From the IMG/VR virus record IMGVR_UViG_3300044856_000216, positions 64,001 through 128,000 of that record: a stretch of DNA of 64,000 nucleotides; one strand, 5' to 3'. This document shows, piece by piece, positions 10,876 through 51,119 of this stretch. This stretch comes from a virus. The notes beneath the pieces are model-generated. The model was not told where the DNA came from. It searched no databases and worked only from the letters and a program-made list of their open reading frames with translations. Positions within the stretch are counted from its first letter, which is position 1; each line of letters opens with the position of its first letter. The translations under genes and the position numbers were made by a program.

Positions 10876-12297
10876 TTATGCGTTTGCCATCTTATCAAAA
10901 CTTCTCTTCATGAAGTCATAATTTACTTTCTGAGATGGACTAAACTTTTTTGTATTCTTATATTTATTAATCCATTCCTCAAACTTGTCCTCATTTTCAT
11001 TCTCACAAGCATATGCCATTAATGCGATTAAAGCTGTTTGGCATTGCTGATATATTGGAGCATTGACTTCAATTCCATTATGATCAAGGCAATAATCAAC
11101 AAGGTCAGAGTAAGTATCAATGTCCTCATCTGTCGCTTCTGGATTTGCGTTTTCCTGTACAAATGAGAGTGTTGATTCATTGGAGTTTTCGCCCTCTAAA
11201 ACTCTTGATTTTATTTGGTTTTTAAGGTCAAACATTTCCAACATAAGCGAAATATATGTATTTATCTTGTTTTGTATCAATTTTTTATCAGATGTACCAG
11301 GTTCTTTGTCAAGTATGTCATAGCTCCATCCATCAACCACTTTGTCATGTAAATTATTTACCAATTCATCTAAAAACTCGACAAATTTGCTATCTTCTAA
11401 TCCCAACTTAATGAATCTATGGAACACGGCAAACCAAACTGGGATATCTTTGAATACAAACAAGTTTTGGAATTTCTCTCCACAAACCTTTGCAATTCGA
11501 TTTCCGTATATATTAATTGTGTTAAATTCTTCATCAGAAGAGCTATTTTCGATAAATTCATTTCTGTCTTTCGGATTCTTTTTCCAATCATCCATATGAA
11601 ATACAGTCATTACAGAATTTGCAACTGTCTGCTCGTAAGTTCCATTCTTCCTCTTTGCACTTGAATATGTAACACAATTTTTGTAAAACTCATTGTTTGC
11701 AATGTTTTTAATTTTTCTTGCATATGTAGGAATCCATGTAAGAGCTTTCTGGTTTGAACCCATGCTCTTATTGCGGTTATACCTTCTTACTAACTTACTG
11801 ATTTCCATCATATTGCAGTTCTGATGAATAACAATTCTGATCTGATAATCATCAAATTTCTTTTTTAATTCATCAGGTAACTGCTCGTAAGTTTTATTCT
11901 TTATGTCAAACTCACAATTGTCCCAAAGAATGCTTCCGTTCTCATCTTTAATAAGATGTCCCTTTTCATCTCTTCGCTTCTTCTGATACTGAATAACGCT
12001 ATTCTCAAAAGATTTAGTTGTTTTCCAGTTCATATGCCTGAATTTATTCAGAGCTGTTGTTCTCTGAATACCATCAACTATATACTGCTGAGTTAAATTA
12101 TCTCCAAGCTCTTCCTCTCCAAGAATTATAGGAGGAATATAATCTTCATTAAGCACCGTATAGATTAGCTCATTTATTGCTCCATTATCCCAACAGAACA
12201 TTCTCTGAACGTCCTGATTTTCTGAAATATCTTCACTATTTACACTCTTTAAATATGAAGATAATGCTATTGCTTGTTCTCTTACCTTTTTTGCCAT
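10876..12297 (-). CDS. DUF262 (GmrSD N-terminal-type, ParB-like) domain protein
   Basis: VQRMFCWDN...IPPIILGEE...YIVDGIQRTTAL matches the DUF262 QR / DGQQR signature; no His-Me C-terminal domain recognised. Confidence 0.85.
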   Translation of the reverse strand: MAKKVREQAIALSSYLKSVNSEDISENQDVQRMFCWDNGAINELIYTVLNEDYIPPIILGEEELGDNLTQQYIVDGIQRTTALNKFRHMNWKTTKSFENSVIQYQKKRRDEKGHLIKDENGSILWDNCEFDIKNKTYEQLPDELKKKFDDYQIRIVIHQNCNMMEISKLVRRYNRNKSMGSNQKALTWIPTYARKIKNIANNEFYKNCVTYSSAKRKNGTYEQTVANSVMTVFHMDDWKKNPKDRNEFIENSSSDEEFNTINIYGNRIAKVCGEKFQNLFVFKDIPVWFAVFHRFIKLGLEDSKFVEFLDELVNNLHDKVVDGWSYDILDKEPGTSDKKLIQNKINTYISLMLEMFDLKNQIKSRVLEGENSNESTLSFVQENANPEATDEDIDTYSDLVDYCLDHNGIEVNAPIYQQCQTALIALMAYACENENEDKFEEWINKYKNTKKFSPSQKVNYDFMKRSFDKMANA

Positions 12298-13586: not shown

Positions 13587-13643
13587 GAGGCATCAAGGAG
13601 TTGAACCTTACATGATTTGGCTTTCCTGCAAAGCTGATGCCTC
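13587..13643 (-). ncRNA. truncated tRNA-like element (acceptor stem + one hairpin + T arm, 57 nt)
   Basis: GAGGCAU/AUGCCUC 7-bp stem, GCUUU-GCAGG-AAAGC hairpin, UAAGG-UUCAACU-CCUUG T arm. Confidence 0.45.
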
Positions 13644-23867: not shown

Positions 23868-25725
23868 ATCGAGTAGGAGGGAAATTTAACGAAATTTCCC
23901 GACCTCTCACACCACCGTGCGTACCGTTCGGTACACGGCGGTTCAATCAACTTAACAAGTAACGCACCTTTCGGTGTAGTAATCTAACATTGAGACTAAT
24001 CCAAATGAGGTTAGTCTCTTTGTACTTATAGCCTTTTGTATCCATCCATTGTGGGCGAGTCTTGCATATCTGTCTCCGCAATACGCTATTTTAAATGCTG
24101 CCCATCTTGGTACATCAAGTTTCATAAGGTTCTTTGCTCTGTTTTGTGGAGTTTTCCAATGTTTCCAAATGCACATACGAAGTCTGTATCTGATGCTACC
24201 ATCTAGTTCTCGACAAAGTGTTTTCATACTTCCAATTTTAAAGTAATTTATCCAACCTCTGATGAGTTGATTTAATTTCTCCACCTTGTAGCTGTTGCTA
24301 ACGCCCCAGCTACGGCATGTGAGTTCTTTCATTCTTTTCTTAAACTTCGCTACTGATTTTGCATGTGGTTTTGCCTTAAACTGATGTGCTCTTGTGTCAA
24401 AGTAGAACCCAAACCCAAGGTATTTAAGTCCGCTTGGTCTGTCTACTTTACTCTTTGTCATGTTGACCTTGAGACCTAGTTTCTCCTCAATAAATCGAGA
24501 TATGTTTCTCATTACCCGATTTGCAGACATTTCACTTCCAACCATGATAATACAGTCATCTGCATATCGCACAAAGTTAAGCCCTCGCTTTTCCATTTCC
24601 TTATCAAGTTCATTGAGCATGATGTTTGCCAATAACGGCGAAAGATTTCCTCCTTGCGGTGTTCCCACAATAGAATCCTCATATTCATCGTCTATCATGA
24701 TTCCGCTGACAAGGTATTTCCTTATGATAGAGATAACATCTCCATCTTTTATAGTTCTGCCTATGATAGTCATAAGCTTGTCATGGTTTACCGTGTCAAA
24801 GAACTTTTCCAAGTCAATGTCTACAATCCAATCGTTACCATCATTCATCATGTCAAGTGCTGTTAGGATTGCTTGCTGTGCACATCTATTCGGTCTGAAT
24901 CCATAACTATGTTCATGGAATTGTTCCTCGTAGATTGGTGTTAATACCTGTGCAATGGCTTGCTGTATGAATCTGTCTGTTACTGTTGGTACTCCTAGGT
25001 TTCTGACACCGCCATCGGGCTTTGGTATCTCCACTCTTCGTACTGGTTGAGGTTTATACTTTCTTGTCCCCAACTGTTCCTTGATGATTTCGCCGTTCTT
25101 TTCAAGATGTTCTTTGAGTTCCGTGTACTTCATTCCGTCCACTCCCTCTGCACCTTTATTTCGTACGACTTGCAGATATGCTCTGTTGAGATTATCGCTA
25201 GATAAAATCTGCTCCATTAGACTACTTGTGTCCATGCGTTCTTTCCTTTCCGTCTCGCTTGATTTGACCATCTTTTACCCGATTGGTTACGGCAGATGTT
25301 GCCATTTCTGCAATACGAGACATACTCAAACTTATTGATTGTTCGCCCCTTCGCTCCATTTCCATTACAGAAACTTCTTCACTACTATGGGCTCGGCTGA
25401 CTTCTCACAGTTCGTTGTTACTAGGCTAATAGAACCTCTGTGAGACCTCCACGCTTAAGGTGCACGCTCTTTCTCTCCATACATCCGCCACATTTACTCT
25501 GCTACTACAAAAAGTGATAATTATTAGACTTCGTTGCTTTTAGCCAACTTATCTCTCATAGCCTAGCCTTATATGTGATTTCTATCCGTCGGACCAGAGA
25601 TTTGCTTACAGCTTCCTTCAGATTCCATCTCACGATGAACACCCTTGCTGTTCAGCTATACACTTCCCACTATCTGGGCGTGTTCGGGACTTTCACCCGT
25701 TAGAGCGCGCCCATGGCGCGCAAAC
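23868..25725 (-). mobile_element. group II intron, class C (IIC)-like, 1858 nt
   Basis: 5' end GUUUGCGCGCCAUGGGCGCGC...GGGUGAAAGUCCCGAAC. Domain V GAACCGCCGUGUACCGAACGGUACGCACGGUGGU at 23911-23944. Domain VI has a bulged A (23874) 7 nt from the 3' end ...CCUACUCGAU. RT/maturase ORF inside; sits 7 nt after a terminator stem. Confidence 0.85.
23952..25271 (-). CDS. group II intron reverse transcriptase/maturase (no endonuclease domain)
   Basis: RT motifs incl. PQGGNLSPLLANI and VRYADDCIIM (YADD), plus a C-terminal maturase X region; 439 aa. Confidence 0.9.
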   Translation of the reverse strand: MVKSSETERKERMDTSSLMEQILSSDNLNRAYLQVVRNKGAEGVDGMKYTELKEHLEKNGEIIKEQLGTRKYKPQPVRRVEIPKPDGGVRNLGVPTVTDRFIQQAIAQVLTPIYEEQFHEHSYGFRPNRCAQQAILTALDMMNDGNDWIVDIDLEKFFDTVNHDKLMTIIGRTIKDGDVISIIRKYLVSGIMIDDEYEDSIVGTPQGGNLSPLLANIMLNELDKEMEKRGLNFVRYADDCIIMVGSEMSANRVMRNISRFIEEKLGLKVNMTKSKVDRPSGLKYLGFGFYFDTRAHQFKAKPHAKSVAKFKKRMKELTCRSWGVSNSYKVEKLNQLIRGWINYFKIGSMKTLCRELDGSIRYRLRMCIWKHWKTPQNRAKNLMKLDVPRWAAFKIAYCGDRYARLAHNGWIQKAISTKRLTSFGLVSMLDYYTERCVTC

Positions 25726-43958: not shown

Positions 43959-44204
43959 TTATCCAAAACATAATGTTATTTTGCGTTCTGTATAAGTACG
44001 CAACTCATTATTCCAGACTGTGCCTTCTGTATGCGAATATGTGCATGGCAAACCCTCATATTTTAAATCCGCAAGACATATATCTTTTAATTTTTTATTA
44101 GGCAATTCTATTCCTAGATCTGCCTTTATAAGTTGAGATATTATATCTTTTGCCTTATAGTTACCTTCTGCATCTGAATGAATTGTTGTTTGCATATTAA
44201 GCAT
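43959..44204 (-). CDS. hypothetical protein
   Basis: 81 aa. Confidence 0.5.
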   Translation of the reverse strand: MLNMQTTIHSDAEGNYKAKDIISQLIKADLGIELPNKKLKDICLADLKYEGLPCTYSHTEGTVWNNELRTYTERKITLCFG

Positions 44205-44206
44205 GA

Positions 44207-44398
44207 TTATACCTCCTGCAAATCTAATTTAATCATGTCTATAACTACAGTTCCCTTATATTTCAAAGGTTCATTATAAAAGGCATTCCAACCCTCTTTG
44301 ATTTTTTCAAGCTGTTTTTGAGACAGCCACATGTCAAGCATGTTTTCTATTAAAGCCTGATTATTCATGACGTAAGTCCTCCTTAATCTCTGAAACAC
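44207..44398 (-). CDS. hypothetical protein
   Basis: 63 aa. Confidence 0.5.
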   Translation of the reverse strand: MFQRLRRTYVMNNQALIENMLDMWLSQKQLEKIKEGWNAFYNEPLKYKGTVVIDMIKLDLQEV

Positions 44399-44565
44399 TC
44401 TTCAAAGTCGCAAAGTGCCATTTCCCTATAAATTCCAGACGCACCGCCAAAAGTTCGTGCATATAAAAGCGCAAACTTATTTCGTGCATACTCTTTTGAA
44501 AATACGCCTATATTATAGGCAAGTCGAATAGAATATAATTCTTGTGAAAATTTGTCTTTCATCAT
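44383..44565 (-). CDS. hypothetical protein
   Basis: 60 aa. Confidence 0.45.
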   Translation of the reverse strand: MMKDKFSQELYSIRLAYNIGVFSKEYARNKFALLYARTFGGASGIYREMALCDFEECFRD

Positions 44566-44576
44566 ACTATTTCCCC

Positions 44577-45062
44577 TTAATCTCTAATATTTGAGGCAGT
44601 CCAGCCAGCGTTGCCTTTTCCGTACCAATGAGCCTCTTCAGTTACCTCGTTCCACTCAAGCGGATTATTAATCTGATGTGTGTTAATCCGTGAGCCAGTT
44701 CCTTTTTTATGCAAAGCATATGTTTTCATCATGCTTTTACAACTATCAAAGGACAGATTTTCCCTTTGAACCGTAGGAATATAGCCTAGCTTTTCACACG
44801 CAGACTTTACCCACTTATAAATCGGATGGTCTGCATTTACAAGCACATCTTGCCAATATCCGCAGAAAATATGGACTGGCAATTTACCATTGAAAAGCGC
44901 AAAATCATCGCATACCCAGAAAACACGCTTTTCGTTTTCGTTGGTGTATCTACCGTAGATTGCACCTGGTAACACCTTAAAATCGCAAGGCAGATTTGTA
45001 ACAGTTCCCTTACATAAACGCACATAAAATTTTGGTGCGTGTACGTGGTTATTTTTTGGCAT
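44577..45062 (-). CDS. hypothetical protein
   Basis: 161 aa; AGGGGGG upstream. Confidence 0.6.
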   Translation of the reverse strand: MPKNNHVHAPKFYVRLCKGTVTNLPCDFKVLPGAIYGRYTNENEKRVFWVCDDFALFNGKLPVHIFCGYWQDVLVNADHPIYKWVKSACEKLGYIPTVQRENLSFDSCKSMMKTYALHKKGTGSRINTHQINNPLEWNEVTEEAHWYGKGNAGWTASNIRD

Positions 45063-45110
45063 GGTTTCACCCCCCTAAAATTAGGCGCACTTGTAGTGCG
45101 ATTTTTGAAA

Positions 45111-45164
45111 TAGGCAGGCAGGGAATCGAACCCTGCTCACCTAGCACTTGCGTACTACTACCTA
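45111..45164 (-). ncRNA. truncated tRNA-like element (acceptor stem + GCAA-capped hairpin + T arm, 54 nt)
   Basis: UAGGUAG/CUGCCUA stem, AGUAC-GCAA-GUGCU hairpin, CAGGG-UUCGAUU-CCCUG T arm; starts 3 nt after the stop of 45167..46003. Confidence 0.45.
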
Positions 45165-45166
45165 GA

Positions 45167-46003
45167 TTATTTTGCAGCCTTTTTGTCCTCAGACTTTACT
45201 TCAGGCTTGATAACCTCATGGTATTTCTCATTCGCAAGGACAACCGAACACAAGTCGGTAATACTTGCTACTTGCTGAGCTTTAGTCAGATTAAGGTTGT
45301 AGTTATACGGCTCATAATTCACCGTTTTATTACCTAAATCATCCTTGCCAGTCTTAATCTTTCTACTAGCGTTACCGCCAAAAGAAGCGACAAAATGATG
45401 TAATAACCACTCATCAATAAATGAACGCTTGCAAGTAACTGGATAGAAATACTTACAATCCTCATTGTTAAAAATCTCAACAATCAACGGACGGAGATAC
45501 TCTTTGAATTGTTTAAGCCCTGAACCTTTTGTGTAAAATGTTTTGATAGCATCAGCAATTTTCTTTGCTCTTTCATCTGAAAGAAAATCAGAATTAAAAG
45601 CTATAATATCAATAGATTTATAAATCTGGTGCGCTAATAAATTGATGTGAATACGGTCTGTCAGTGGTAAAGCGGTCACTGTATCAAGTGACATGCAAGC
45701 CTCTACTTCCTTGCGGAGATCTACGACATTGTCCCGCTTAGAGATAAAGTCCCCTGCATCTACTCCGAGCTTCTCAACGACAACCCCAACCTCAGCGGTC
45801 AAAGCATCTACACCGACAGCTACGCTCTCAAACTTTTCGCGTAAGTCTTTAAAAGCCTTCTCAGCCTTTGCAAGCTCAGCATGACGAACGACAGTTTTTA
45901 CTGCATCCATAACCAAAAAGTTGTTCTTTTTGCAAGCATCGAGATTGATTGCATCGCTTGTGATTGTAAATAATTCAGATTTTAACATAAATAGTCCTTC
46001 CAT
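45167..46003 (-). CDS. hypothetical protein
   Basis: 278 aa; probable start at ATG 45988 after GGAAGGA. Confidence 0.65.
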   Translation of the reverse strand: MEGLFMLKSELFTITSDAINLDACKKNNFLVMDAVKTVVRHAELAKAEKAFKDLREKFESVAVGVDALTAEVGVVVEKLGVDAGDFISKRDNVVDLRKEVEACMSLDTVTALPLTDRIHINLLAHQIYKSIDIIAFNSDFLSDERAKKIADAIKTFYTKGSGLKQFKEYLRPLIVEIFNNEDCKYFYPVTCKRSFIDEWLLHHFVASFGGNASRKIKTGKDDLGNKTVNYEPYNYNLNLTKAQQVASITDLCSVVLANEKYHEVIKPEVKSEDKKAAK

Positions 46004-46078
46004 CCTAGTTTTAACGTGGGGACATCCACGAAAATTTAATAGTTTTCAATGATTTTTTGCTGGAATAATTCCAGCGAC

Positions 46079-46144
46079 TGCGCTATAATGGAATTGAACC
46101 ACTACAAAAGATTTTATAAAAATCCAATGGTGCCAACTAGCGCA
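46079..46144 (-). ncRNA. irregular tRNA-like gene with reduced D region and UAU anticodon loop (possible tRNA-Ile-like or pseudo-tRNA)
   Basis: Acceptor UGCGCUA/UAGCGCA; anticodon arm GGAUU-UUUAUAA-AAUCU; T arm AGUGG-UUCAAUU-CCAUU. Only 12 nt where the D arm should be. Confidence 0.35.
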
Positions 46145-46529
46145 CTATTCACCGACTAAGGTTACTTATATTTTTTTAAACCGATTGAAGTAAAACAAGT
46201 TTTCGGAGCTTTTAAAACTTGAGTTTTTCGCACTAGCTCATACGGATATAAGCTATTTTGTAAACCAGTATAAAACCAAAACCTAACAACTAAATGTTTT
46301 TTACTGGCTTGTATGTAAAATCTATACGAATACAGATTATAGAAAAGTTGTGCTATGTATTGGTACTTGCTAACGGATATATGCTATATATACATTAGCT
46401 TGCACCCCGTCAAATATGTTTAGGTAAAATTAGTTCATGCCCCTGAACTTGCTAACTACATCTCATGCAATAGCTGTCTGCAATGTTATTATATAGGTTT
46501 ACCAAGGTTTACACCTACAATTCTATTAG

Positions 46530-46545
46530 TACCATTCTACCATTC
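46530..46545. repeat. tandem 8-mer TACCATTC x2
   Basis: Read directly, in the non-coding region. Confidence 0.8.
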
Positions 46546-46900
46546 TACGGTGGTACTAAGACAGTTAAGTTCGCTGTCGTGGCTTTAGTCTATATAACCG
46601 TTTTGACATACGTTTTAAATACGTCTATTCCGTCATCTGCTGTGCGGTGCTTTGCTCGTGTGGTCTATGACCTTTTTATTATAGCTAAGCAAATAGCTAT
46701 CTTGCTATCATGTAGCAAGTGGTACTTTATTAACTTGTCAATCACTACTGAATGAAGTAGTAATTAGGTTTCCGACACCCTTAACGTATGGACTTATAAA
46801 AGGGGTTTTGCCCCTTGCCCTTTCGGACAAGTCAATAATAATACAAATTTTGGGATTTTGCAATACATTTTTTAGGATTTTTATTATTTTGTTAAAATTG

Positions 46901-46922
46901 TATAGTTTTGGTATAGTTTTGG
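46901..46922. repeat. tandem 11-mer TATAGTTTTGG x2
   Basis: Read directly; flanks the DnaA-box cluster. Confidence 0.85.
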
Positions 46923-46930
46923 TGTGTGTT

Positions 46931-46949
46931 ATTGTGAATTATTCACAAT
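46931..46949. promoter_or_regulatory. 19-bp palindrome ATTGTGAAT-T-ATTCACAAT (operator-like)
   Basis: Read directly. Confidence 0.7.
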
Positions 46950-46950
46950 T

Positions 46951-47011
46951 TGTTGATAACTATGTGGATAAGTTTTAGTTGATTGTTGATAACTTATAAA
47001 AATGTGGATAA
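46951..47011 (+). promoter_or_regulatory. cluster of four co-oriented DnaA-box-like 9-mers (candidate replication origin)
   Basis: TGTGGATAA at 46963-46971 and 47003-47011 (perfect). TGTTGATAA at 46951-46959 and 46984-46992 (1 mismatch). Located at the divergent strand switch. Confidence 0.6.
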
Positions 47012-47200
47012 CTAACGATAACGAAACTATACCAGATAATAATATCAATATTATCTAACATAGTTTTTAAAACTATATATAATGGTTTTATAGTTCTAAA
47101 AAAATGACTAATATATATCTATTAACCATTCTTTTTTGCCTAACCGGGGGTAGTTAAAACTAACTAATAAGGTTGGAAATGCAGCAAGCCCTATAGCTGA

Positions 47201-47520
47201 TTCATCTACACACCAACTCAAAAATCCATCCTTTCCAATCCTCAAAATCCCCAACAAAATCAAGCAAAATCCCAATCCCCCTCCCTCAAACCACTTATCG
47301 CACCTCATATCGTCAAATCCCACTAAAATCAAGCATTTTCCCAGCTTCACAACTCAAAAATCAAACCCTCATCCCACCAAAAATCCACCCACAATTCCAA
47401 AATCTTCCTTATTTATAGGCACTTTTACCGATAACGTTTTTTCACCTCAAAATCGCCCAAATCATCTCTCACCACACTCCCTATACAGGGGGTACTCAAA
47501 AACTACACACAAAATCACTC
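47201..47520 (+). repeat. G-depleted tract with about 12 degenerate CAAAATC repeats
   Basis: I count 5 G in 47201-47400; the motif recurs every 10-40 nt. Confidence 0.75.
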
Positions 47521-47581
47521 CAATAAGAGAATAACTATATAACCAATACAAAAAATAATTATTCAACTTAAAGGAGAAAAC

Positions 47582-50114: not shown

Positions 50115-51119
50115 ATAATTGGGGTATATTCTATAACAAATTTGAAAACTAAAAAATTATATATTGGAGAAAGTCTTGATATTGATAAAAGATGGATTAA
50201 TCATAAAAATGATCTTTTAAATAACCAACACGCTAATTATTATCTTCAACAAGATTTTAATAAGTTTGGGAAGGCATTTTTTAAATTTGAAGTTCTGCAA
50301 GAAGTTGAAAGAGATAGTATCACTATTACTCAATCCAAATTATTGATGTTAGAAAATGCTTATATAGAAAAATATAAAAATGAAGATTATGAATTATATA
50401 ACATAGAAAATACACTAGAAGATGTTCTTTCAAATAAAAGGAAATTATTGGTTTGCGAAGAAATTGCAAATTATGTTGTAGTGTCTCAATTTTTAAAAAA
50501 TAAATATGTATATGATTATACAAATAAAAGATTTAATTATTGTCAAAGAGATACAATTGAAAATTTAATATTATCTAATTCTTCCATCAAAGGGAAAGAA
50601 AAAGCAAAGCAAGTTGCAAACATAATATTAAAAGAGTTAATTGATCAGAATCTATATGAAAACTTTATAATAGAAAACACTTACTCTATTTATCTATATC
50701 ATAAAATTCAAGAACGTAAAATTATAGAAATTAATTCTAAAGGTCGAGAATATATATTAAGTCATTATGACTTTAATTCGTTTTTATTAAGAAAAAGAAC
50801 TTCTGAAGCCAAATTTTATATACAACAATATCCCTCTGAAAAGAAAATTAAACCAGAAGATCAAAATAGAATACAAGATGTTTGGCATAAACTTAAAGAT
50901 AAATGCATTCTACCACCAGAAAATAAATACAATGATTTTCGAGATATGCTTATAAAATTAAATTTAATTATTATTGATAATAATAAGAGAACACGAGCAA
51001 CTGAATTTGCAATGAAAAATAAATATTTTTTAGTTGTTAAATATAATAAAGCTAAAGATATTTATCAATATGTTATATCTCAAGATGGTTTAAGGTATAT
51101 TTTAGCAAATATAAAATAA
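50115..51119 (+). CDS. GIY-YIG homing-endonuclease-like protein
   Basis: GVYSITNLKTKKLYIGESLDIDKRWINHKNDL...NKFG closely parallels I-TevI-type N-termini. The GIY motif lies upstream of the first canonical start (TTG 50142), so the start is placed at ATA/ATT 50112-50118. Confidence 0.8.
   Translation: MIGVYSITNLKTKKLYIGESLDIDKRWINHKNDLLNNQHANYYLQQDFNKFGKAFFKFEVLQEVERDSITITQSKLLMLENAYIEKYKNEDYELYNIENTLEDVLSNKRKLLVCEEIANYVVVSQFLKNKYVYDYTNKRFNYCQRDTIENLILSNSSIKGKEKAKQVANIILKELIDQNLYENFIIENTYSIYLYHKIQERKIIEINSKGREYILSHYDFNSFLLRKRTSEAKFYIQQYPSEKKIKPEDQNRIQDVWHKLKDKCILPPENKYNDFRDMLIKLNLIIIDNNKRTRATEFAMKNKYFLVVKYNKAKDIYQYVISQDGLRYILANIK

Follow-up and report, generated by a model that had tools for sequence, protein, structure and literature searches.

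Why would a phage place an RNA shaped like a transfer RNA (tRNA), but without the parts needed for decoding, directly behind the stop codon of one of its genes? The question is raised by an element of 54 nucleotides (nt) at positions 45111-45164 of a viral stretch of 64,000 nt, hereafter the window, which spans positions 64,001 to 128,000 of the IMG/VR record IMGVR_UViG_3300044856_000216. A first-pass annotation made from the letters of this stretch had offered two explanations, a punctuation mark in messenger RNA (mRNA) or the tRNA remnant of a phage attachment site. Comparison with related phages indicates that the structure of the element is under selection, and sister phages carry a hammerhead ribozyme in its place. 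On balance, and by a modest measure, we lean towards a signal akin to the t-elements of plant mitochondria, at which the host ribonucleases (RNases) P and Z would sever a polycistronic transcript. We propose this because the selected features are those read by the enzymes that process tRNA ends and not those used in decoding.

The fold is compact. An acceptor-like stem encloses a single hairpin and a T arm, and the D and anticodon arms are missing (Table 1). The minimum-free-energy fold is this very structure, at -23.1 kcal/mol (z = -2.8), and 4 of 200 shuffled sequences folded equally well. The same arrangement had been described in the first-pass annotation, and the sequence, the pairings and the covariation all bear it out, although two lengths had to be revised: the central hairpin has 6 base pairs (bp; UAGUAC/GUGCUA) instead of 5, and the C regarded as a spacer pairs with the G ahead of the T stem, which gives a T stem of 6 bp and a linker of 5 nt (GGUGA). 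The acceptor and T stems together make a stack of 13 bp. In its acceptor and T arms the element has what a tRNA has, namely a 7-bp acceptor stem, a T-Psi-C-R-A-N-N loop and the G53-C61 pair, on a T stem of 6 bp. The placement had also been read correctly, since the element lies between the stop codon (UAA, 45169-45167) of the open reading frame (ORF) 45167..46003 and the Shine-Dalgarno sequence of the gene 44577..45062, and the space between the element and this downstream gene is too small for a promoter. The t-element motif GGTTCRANYCC is matched by GGTTCGATTCC on the sense strand, together with an acceptor-like closing stem, in the untranslated region (UTR) between the stop codon and the next Shine-Dalgarno sequence. 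On the 3' side the element is followed by U, then by UUCAAAAAUC, and then by a hairpin at 45086-45100.

Programs that detect tRNAs do not recognize the element. ARAGORN called a tRNA-Gln, a tRNA-Met and a tRNA-Lys in the window and did not call the element, and Rfam at gathering thresholds returned, for the whole window, only three tRNAs and a group II intron. The Rfam tRNA model (RF00005) gave no match to the element in a 501-nt search with E values up to 10; there is no cloverleaf to be found, as one tetraloop hairpin stands where the D and anticodon arms would be. The best Rfam match was to mascRNA-menRNA (RF01684), at 17.9 bits against a gathering score of 42.5 (E = 0.57), and the sub-threshold matches of the region to mascRNA, SpF41 and rli48 are not significant. 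A descriptor of our own requires a TTCRANN loop, a 5-bp closing stem and, within 0-1 nt, a 7-mer complementary to an upstream 7-mer. In the window it matched only the tRNA-Gln, the element, a second tRNA-like element at 46079-46144 and a third at 13587-13643 (element 1), while shuffled windows gave about 0.5 matches each. A covariance model of the element, R1, found no second copy in the window, so element 1 and 46079-46144 represent separate sequence families and are not paralogues of it. This fits the earlier description of element 1 as having the same architecture with an unrelated sequence, as R1 gives it only 9.6 bits.

Further evidence comes from comparative analysis. Relatives, all drawn from IMG/VR and from human-gut metagenome assemblies, were gathered by three routes: the T-arm pattern, the flanking proteins (a route independent of the RNA) and R1. 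The covariation statistics rest on the covariance-model alignment A6, because MAFFT misplaced the variants with short hairpins. Retrieval through the proteins gave 35 loci from IMG/VR, 28 of which have the element right next to the stop codon of the homologous gene, and 24 from metagenomes, of which 23 do. Its offset from that codon ranges from a 2-nt overlap to 10 nt beyond it over some 50 loci of related human-gut phage contigs. Of the cells in the alignment of the 21 distinct variants, 97.5% hold standard pairs, and two-sided changes occur in 13 of the 19 pairs (acceptor stem 6/7, hairpin 6/6, T stem 1/6). None of 500 column shuffles reached the observed pairing values, and the signal was lost when partners were slid by 1-3 columns (0-1 two-sided pairs). 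The acceptor-like stem is fully paired in all 21 variants, RNAalifold independently predicts the same three helices, and G-U pairs assign the fold to the strand that carries the gene in sense. This constancy of structure is found behind a coding sequence that varies strongly: alleles of the upstream gene share only 36-38% identity, in contigs that are 87-98% identical in other genes.

Conservation is distributed unevenly over the element. The acceptor sequence drifts freely, while the T stem and its closing G-C pair are near-invariant and the T loop is almost always UUCGAYU (UUCAAUU and UUUGAUU occur in single variants). One compensatory T-stem change, GCAAGG/CCUUGC, was found in L051, a locus retrieved via protein. 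The linker reads GGU(G/U)N with a single exception among the 21 variants, which has GGGGU. The hairpin loop is mostly of the GNRA type, never a 7-nt anticodon loop, and alleles of the L015/L051 type have the hairpin cut to 4 bp. After the stem, the first unpaired base is U in 21/21 variants and the next base is U as well; the genuine tRNA genes of the phage likewise do not encode CCA. On the 5' side, the acceptor strand of 18/21 variants begins with the A and G of a UAG stop codon. The extent of this variation can be appreciated from four examples, given as acceptor strand, hairpin, linker, T arm and acceptor strand: AGGAUGA, UACUGC-GCAA-GUAGUA, GGUGU, T arm, UCAUCCU; AGGAUAA, CGGC-UCAC-GCUG, GGUUA, T arm, UUAUCCU; AGGAUAG, CGGA-UUCUU-UCCG, GGUUC, GCAAGG-UUCGAUU-CCUUGC, CUAUCCU; and UAGGCGG, UGGUAC-ACAA-GUACUA, GGUGU, T arm, CUGCCUA.

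Further insight comes from phages that lack the element. In four contigs (L070, L079, L081 and L082) with a 38%-identical allele of the upstream gene, the slot, which runs from the stop codon to the shared downstream hairpin AAAAAUCCAGGCU-NNA-AGUCUGCC, holds no tRNA mimic. It contains an 11-bp hairpin followed by GCGUC/UUACGG-UGUAAGU-CCGUAA-CUGAUGA-GC-AGAA-GC-GAAA-CGC, in which we recognize a type III hammerhead: a CUGANGA...GAAA core, a GUH cleavage triplet (GUC), the A15.1-U16.1 and G10.1-C11.1 pairs, a 6-bp stem I, a minimal stem II of 2 bp and an open stem III. The Rfam model Hammerhead_3 matches this occupant with 23.6 bits (E = 0.004 in a 166-nt search), its 2-bp stem II being far shorter than that of the model. 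Applied to the 1.38 Mb of sequence retrieved, a hammerhead descriptor of our own recovered these 4 loci alone, and 6.9 Mb of shuffled sequence gave no match. A search of IMG/VR for the hammerhead core with a free stem II loop gave 116 loci (L133-L245) with 83 unique sequences, 52 of which parse to the same architecture, with extensive covariation in stems I and III. The family has a stem II of the form GC-NNNN-GC and a conserved 7-nt stem I loop, U-R-N-R-A-G-U. Since these relatives share the architecture and have co-varying stems, the slot occupant belongs to a large family of phage hammerheads. The members of this family fall below the gathering threshold of RF00008.

The variable gene has a tRNA-like element on its other side too. 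The element at 46079-46144, found by the descriptor scan, has a 7-bp acceptor stem (UGCGCUA/UAGCGCA), degenerate inner arms, a T arm (UAGUGG-UUCAAUU-CCAUUA) and a stretch resembling an anticodon loop (UUUAUAA). It scores 23.6 bits with the Rfam tRNA model, under the gathering score of 29. [quoted passage not shown] A D-like hairpin with GG in it, along with a long variable arm, is seen in some of them; none attains the Rfam tRNA threshold, and ARAGORN labels two of them 'tRNA-???' with a 2-nt anticodon. Because two tRNA-like elements bracket the gene and a hammerhead replaces one of them in sister phages, the idea of mRNA punctuation put forward in the first-pass annotation gains strong circumstantial support. 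The earlier interpretation as a whole is partly supported, and fully so in its structural reading.

How might such a mark work? The element appears to retain what processing enzymes read, that is, a coaxial acceptor/T helix with a canonical T loop, followed by an unpaired U but by no encoded CCA. Its transcription would take place within a polycistronic early-type mRNA, between the variable gene and the downstream genes. Host RNase P would cut at its 5' edge, near 45164/45165, and RNase Z after the discriminator U, near 45110/45109. These cuts would sever the transcript and free an RNA of about 55 nt, and the downstream mRNA would then begin just ahead of a protective hairpin. An equivalent hairpin (CAGGCU-NNA-AGUCUG or GCAAAUUC...GAAGUUUGC) lies 3' of the slot in most relatives; in the exceptional L052 it is missing and the element leads directly into the Shine-Dalgarno sequence. 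In Bacillus subtilis the substrates of RNase Z are precursors without CCA, and long 5' extensions inhibit the enzyme, in which case RNase P acts first (PMC1874595). Because of this inhibition we expect the same order here, with RNase P first and RNase Z after. A variant in which RNase Z acts alone, so that the upstream mRNA would end in the mimic as a 3' cap, was considered, and the same inhibition weakens it. The element at 46079-46144 would do likewise in the 5' UTR and thus insulate the variable gene on both sides. The hammerhead, for its part, would give the same separation independently of host enzymes.

Several points weigh against this proposal. The cleavage is something that we infer throughout, and so are the enzymes involved and the consequences for mRNA stability. 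The acceptor/T stack has 13 bp, where 12 are canonical, and there is no D loop for the T loop to contact, which may make the element a poor substrate of RNase P. In 18/21 variants RNase P is predicted to cut within the UAG stop codon, which would produce a non-stop mRNA. The invariance of the T stem partly reflects ascertainment, as some of the retrieval was based on the T-arm pattern. The hammerhead of the slot scores below the Rfam gathering score of RF00008 (48.5 bits). The content of the slot also varies. A 4-nt slippage deletion (CTGC of CCCTGCCTGCCTA) at the equivalent of 45111-45117 leaves an acceptor stem of 4 bp; it is present in two independent assemblies, UViG_3300045988_148040 (the same as L009/L014/L050/L058) and L092 (ULNR01016441.1). 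L076 and L083 have a hairpin only, L080 has another hairpin, and L105 has nothing recognizable in the slot. Given these deletion and loss alleles, the module is useful yet dispensable.

The overlap with the stop codon can also be seen as part of the function. Gut phages might insulate a hypervariable cassette gene with interchangeable RNA cutters, either a mini-tRNA mimic or a hammerhead, and in most alleles the cut by RNase P (U/AG) might turn the message into a non-stop mRNA, coupling its processing to the shut-off or tagging of the variable protein. We offer this extension tentatively and consider it rather unlikely. If true, a virus of bacteria would have its counterpart to the stop codons left incomplete in mitochondria and to the plant t-elements in nad6 and ccmC.

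The processing signal has to be weighed against other readings of the same data. It might be that processing merely liberates the mini-tRNA and that the released RNA is the actual product, acting in trans. Such an RNA could be a decoy or sponge for a protein that reads the acceptor/T arm, for example a tRNA-targeting defence nuclease or nucleotidyltransferase, the CCA-adding enzyme or elongation factor Tu. This would account for the conservation of the T arm, the linker GG and the discriminator U at the sequence level, beyond the needs of the helices, and it is in line with the presence in this phage of several such elements from unrelated sequence families and of similar non-tRNA tRNA-like elements in other phage contigs. 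Yet the hammerhead and hairpin that replace the element in sister phages yield no tRNA-like RNA, the acceptor sequence drifts, so that no identity element is conserved there, and deletion and loss variants circulate. We thus find a product acting in trans unlikely.

One could also think of an element working in cis without being cut, either as a 3' stabilizer against exonucleases or, together with the hairpin at 45086-45100, as a leaky terminator or attenuator. A stable fold (-23 kcal/mol) directly 3' of a stop codon, followed by a terminator-like hairpin, is what one would expect in this case, and some lineages retain a plain hairpin alone in the slot. But a generic stabilizer has no need for a canonical T loop, an invariant pair of the G53-C61 type, a fixed 7-bp stem and an unpaired U, and the hammerhead in the slot points toward cutting rather than blocking. 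A role of this kind seems to us distinctly unlikely.

A functionless tRNA pseudogene, decaying after loss of its D arm and anticodon loop, is very improbable. The linker does resemble the variable loop of a tRNA (A-GGU-), the T arm is tRNA-like, the phage has real tRNA genes, and both the 4-nt deletion and loss alleles exist. But a neutral relic would lose its pairing, and covariation disfavours this reading: 13/19 pairs show two-sided changes and 97.5% pairing is maintained next to a protein that is only 36-38% identical.

The attachment-site alternative of the first-pass annotation, in which the element is the tRNA 3' fragment of an attP site, is next to impossible even though its 3' half resembles a T arm with its acceptor strand and genuine att-like tRNA fragments sharing the T arm exist in other IMG/VR contigs (the L018/L028 and L020/L034 groups), because conservation extends to the complementary 5' strand, which changes in step with the 3' strand, the flanking ORFs tested contain no integrase domain, and the genome is of a large virulent type. 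Identity of the 3' half to a host tRNA, with an unconserved 5' strand, was the signature of such a site by the criterion of the first-pass annotation itself, and the outcome was the opposite on both counts: a 22-mer covering T loop and acceptor strand (GGTTCGATTCCCTGCCTGCCTA) and a 25-mer covering linker and T arm both had 0 matches in the representative genomes of 185,579 bacterial and archaeal species. The fragments in the other contigs have variable upstream sequence, unlike the element, which is therefore not an att site. The T arm GCAGGGTTCGANTCCCTGC is found as a tRNA 3' fragment, with such variable upstream sequence, in the unrelated contigs L018, L021, L028, L029 and L039, L020, L034 and L044, and L027 and L040; one group of these fragments terminates in ...TGGCTTGCCA. 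They look like att-type tRNA fragments.

Table 1. Features of the locus and related features elsewhere (window coordinates unless a contig is named)
Feature	Position	Strand	Description
Mini tRNA-like element	45164 to 45111	-	54 nt; 2 nt (UC) past the upstream stop codon
Acceptor-like stem, 5' strand	45158..45164	-	UAGGUAG; pairs with 45111-45117
Central hairpin	45142..45157	-	UAGUAC-GCAA-GUGCUA, 6 bp; replaces D and anticodon arms; no linker to acceptor stem
Linker	45137..45141	-	GGUGA, 5 nt; leading GG invariant
T arm	45118..45136	-	GCAGGG-UUCGAUU-CCCUGC, 6-bp stem; equivalents of G53, U54, U55, C56, R57, A58, C61
Acceptor-like stem, 3' strand	45111..45117	-	CUGCCUA; pairs with 45158-45164
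Discriminator-like unpaired U and next U	45109..45110	-	CCA not encoded
Downstream hairpin	45086..45100	-	CGCACU-ACA-AGUGCG; 10 nt 3' of the element; then weak U run and Shine-Dalgarno sequence
Downstream gene, 161 amino acids	44577..45062	-	ATG at 45062, preceded by Shine-Dalgarno sequence
Upstream gene, 273 amino acids	45167..45988	-	Hypervariable cassette; start MLKSE (ATG 45988) common to all homologues
Second tRNA-like element at the locus	46079..46144	-	66 nt; 5' UTR of the variable gene; found by descriptor scan
Element 1	13587..13643	-	Same architecture; between tRNA-Gln and TTG start of 206-amino-acid ORF
Hammerhead in L070	3336-3381		Same slot in L079, L081 and L082

The genes around the element offer few clues. 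The ORF listed for the upstream gene starts at the ATG at 46003 and has 278 amino acids; the 273-amino-acid protein had no match in a profile search of Pfam, PHROG and PDB, and its AlphaFold2 model has a predicted local distance difference test (pLDDT) score of only 57. The same profile searches (Pfam, PHROGs and PDB) with the flanking proteins gave nothing informative. Divergence is concentrated in this gene: L015 and L016, the two diverged contigs compared, show 87% identity in the 161-amino-acid downstream gene, and the 206-amino-acid gene adjoining element 1 is 94-98% identical to the window copy in contigs whose upstream gene is 36-38% identical. Further neighbours are small ORFs of unassigned function, a helix-turn-helix protein and a divergently transcribed DUF3825 gene; no integrase domain was found in the flanking ORFs tested. 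The window, part of a large tailed phage, is low in GC (~32%) and carries numerous small genes that point leftward, together with three tRNA genes and a group II intron. A 685-amino-acid protein of the window is ~60% identical to proteins of Bacillus phages of the Herelleviridae type. The genome is of the large virulent Herelleviridae-like type, and the host is probably a member of the Firmicutes. Megablast of positions 44000-47000 and tblastn of the 278-amino-acid protein against 50,697 GenBank phages found no match, so the locus has no annotated relative there.

Element 1 is almost unchanged in 16 related contigs, where its placement is constant and the sole change in its stems is from G-C to G-U. 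Elements of this general kind also occur elsewhere. About 1 Mb of assorted phage contigs contained some 10 more combinations of acceptor stem and T arm that ARAGORN does not call, against 0 in shuffles; examples are L244 5097-5139 (minus strand), L194 1739-1806, L219 3441-3509 and L163 7276-7359. One of these uncalled elements resembles a minihelix of 41 nt, TCCGCTG-10 nt-CCGGG-TTCGATT-CCCGG-CAGCGGA. Non-decoding tRNA mimics may thus be common in phages.

The variable gene is preceded by a gene-free stretch of ~1.6 kb (46004-47581), in which no relative has called genes. Its portion 46800-47500 includes an AT-rich block, two consensus DnaA boxes (TTATCCACA) near 46963-46971 and 47002-47010, and TTATCAACA variants, and at 47200-47480 there are short G/T-rich, iteron-like repeats (GGGATTTTG). 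Identity to L016 is 80% over the segment 46995-47452, compared with only 36% for the neighbouring gene. The stretch looks like a replication origin. We had considered it as a long non-coding RNA ending in a tRNA-like unit, in the style of MALAT1, and dropped this candidate in view of the DnaA boxes and iteron-like repeats. About 20 nt 5' of the start of the variable gene, at 46015-46030 on the minus strand, there is a hairpin (CGUGG-AUGUCC-CCACG) that recurs nearly letter for letter in L052, L053, L070, L076 and L079 despite the divergence of the coding sequence; it may be a protein-binding or 5'-stabilizing site. Elsewhere in the window, the group II intron (23868-25639, minus strand) has the Rfam D1-D4 and D5/6 domains and an intron ORF at 23952-25271. 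There is also an ORF with a weak GIY-YIG domain at 50142-51119 (plus strand) and a GmrSD-N-like ORF at 10876-12297 (minus strand).

tRNA-like processing signals and phage genes flanked by ribozymes are already known, the former being established in organelles and in a few long non-coding RNAs of eukaryotes. The literature that we searched contains no description of tRNA-shaped signals as conserved punctuation in phage or bacterial mRNAs, nor of the human-gut phage context, the minimal three-way junction stacked over 13 bp, the placement on both sides of a hypervariable cassette or the interchangeability with a hammerhead. Near-identical gut phages with either a mini-tRNA mimic or a hammerhead in one intergenic slot represent a natural swap, which provides a testable handle on why phages have self-cleaving ribozymes and on the role of phage tRNA-like sequences that fail tRNA detection. 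With only 54 nt, the element is moreover a compact part supplied by nature, which could act as a transcript insulator dependent on host enzymes, a natural analogue of the engineered arrays of tRNAs and guide RNAs (tRNA-gRNA arrays).

Among known systems, the tRNA-like units (TMERs) of murine gammaherpesvirus 68, where cleavage by RNase Z liberates the downstream RNA, are alike in being viral and in that they cannot be aminoacylated. They differ in belonging to a eukaryotic virus, in being transcribed by RNA polymerase III, in their full cloverleaf and in preceding precursor-microRNA hairpins instead of mRNAs. With the human mascRNA and menRNA, RNase P makes the 3' end of the upstream RNA and RNase Z frees the small RNA. 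Like the phage element, these (MALAT1, NEAT1; RF01684) are modules of ~55-60 nt, tRNA-like and placed at the 3' end of a longer transcript, but they are vertebrate, nuclear, cloverleaf-shaped with a D arm, and not homologous to it. In animal mitochondria, as reportedly set out by Ojala, Montoya and Attardi in 1981, tRNAs lie between cistrons, their excision by RNase P and RNase Z frees the mRNAs, and stop codons can end up incomplete. There the marks are functional tRNAs, whereas the phage element has no anticodon loop and is non-decoding.

Two further systems resemble the arrangement that we propose. Hammerheads flanking single prophage genes have been taken to imply the processing of long transcripts (Perreault et al. 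2011, PMC3088659). In both cases cleavage modules bracket single phage genes of varying identity, with a proposed release of gene-length mRNAs; the prophage hammerheads are self-cleaving, while the tRNA-like element would need host enzymes. The t-elements of plant mitochondria, about which Hanic-Joyce is also said to have reported in 1990, are the closest functional precedent. They carry a GGTTCRANYCC motif and set mRNA ends via RNase P and RNase Z, and some of the cuts, in nad6 and ccmC, lie so far inside the reading frame that the stop codon is lost (Forner et al. 2007, PMC1920247). Like the phage element, they depart from the canonical tRNA fold but have its T arm and an acceptor stem, and they lie in the 5' or 3' UTR of mRNAs; the removal of stop codons parallels the overlap with the stop codon in 18/21 phage variants. 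Plant t-elements are organellar, are served by a protein-only RNase P and have ends that coincide with mapped mRNA termini, whereas the phage element is known from its sequence; at 54 nt it is also much smaller, with a strict three-way junction and a stack of 13 bp.

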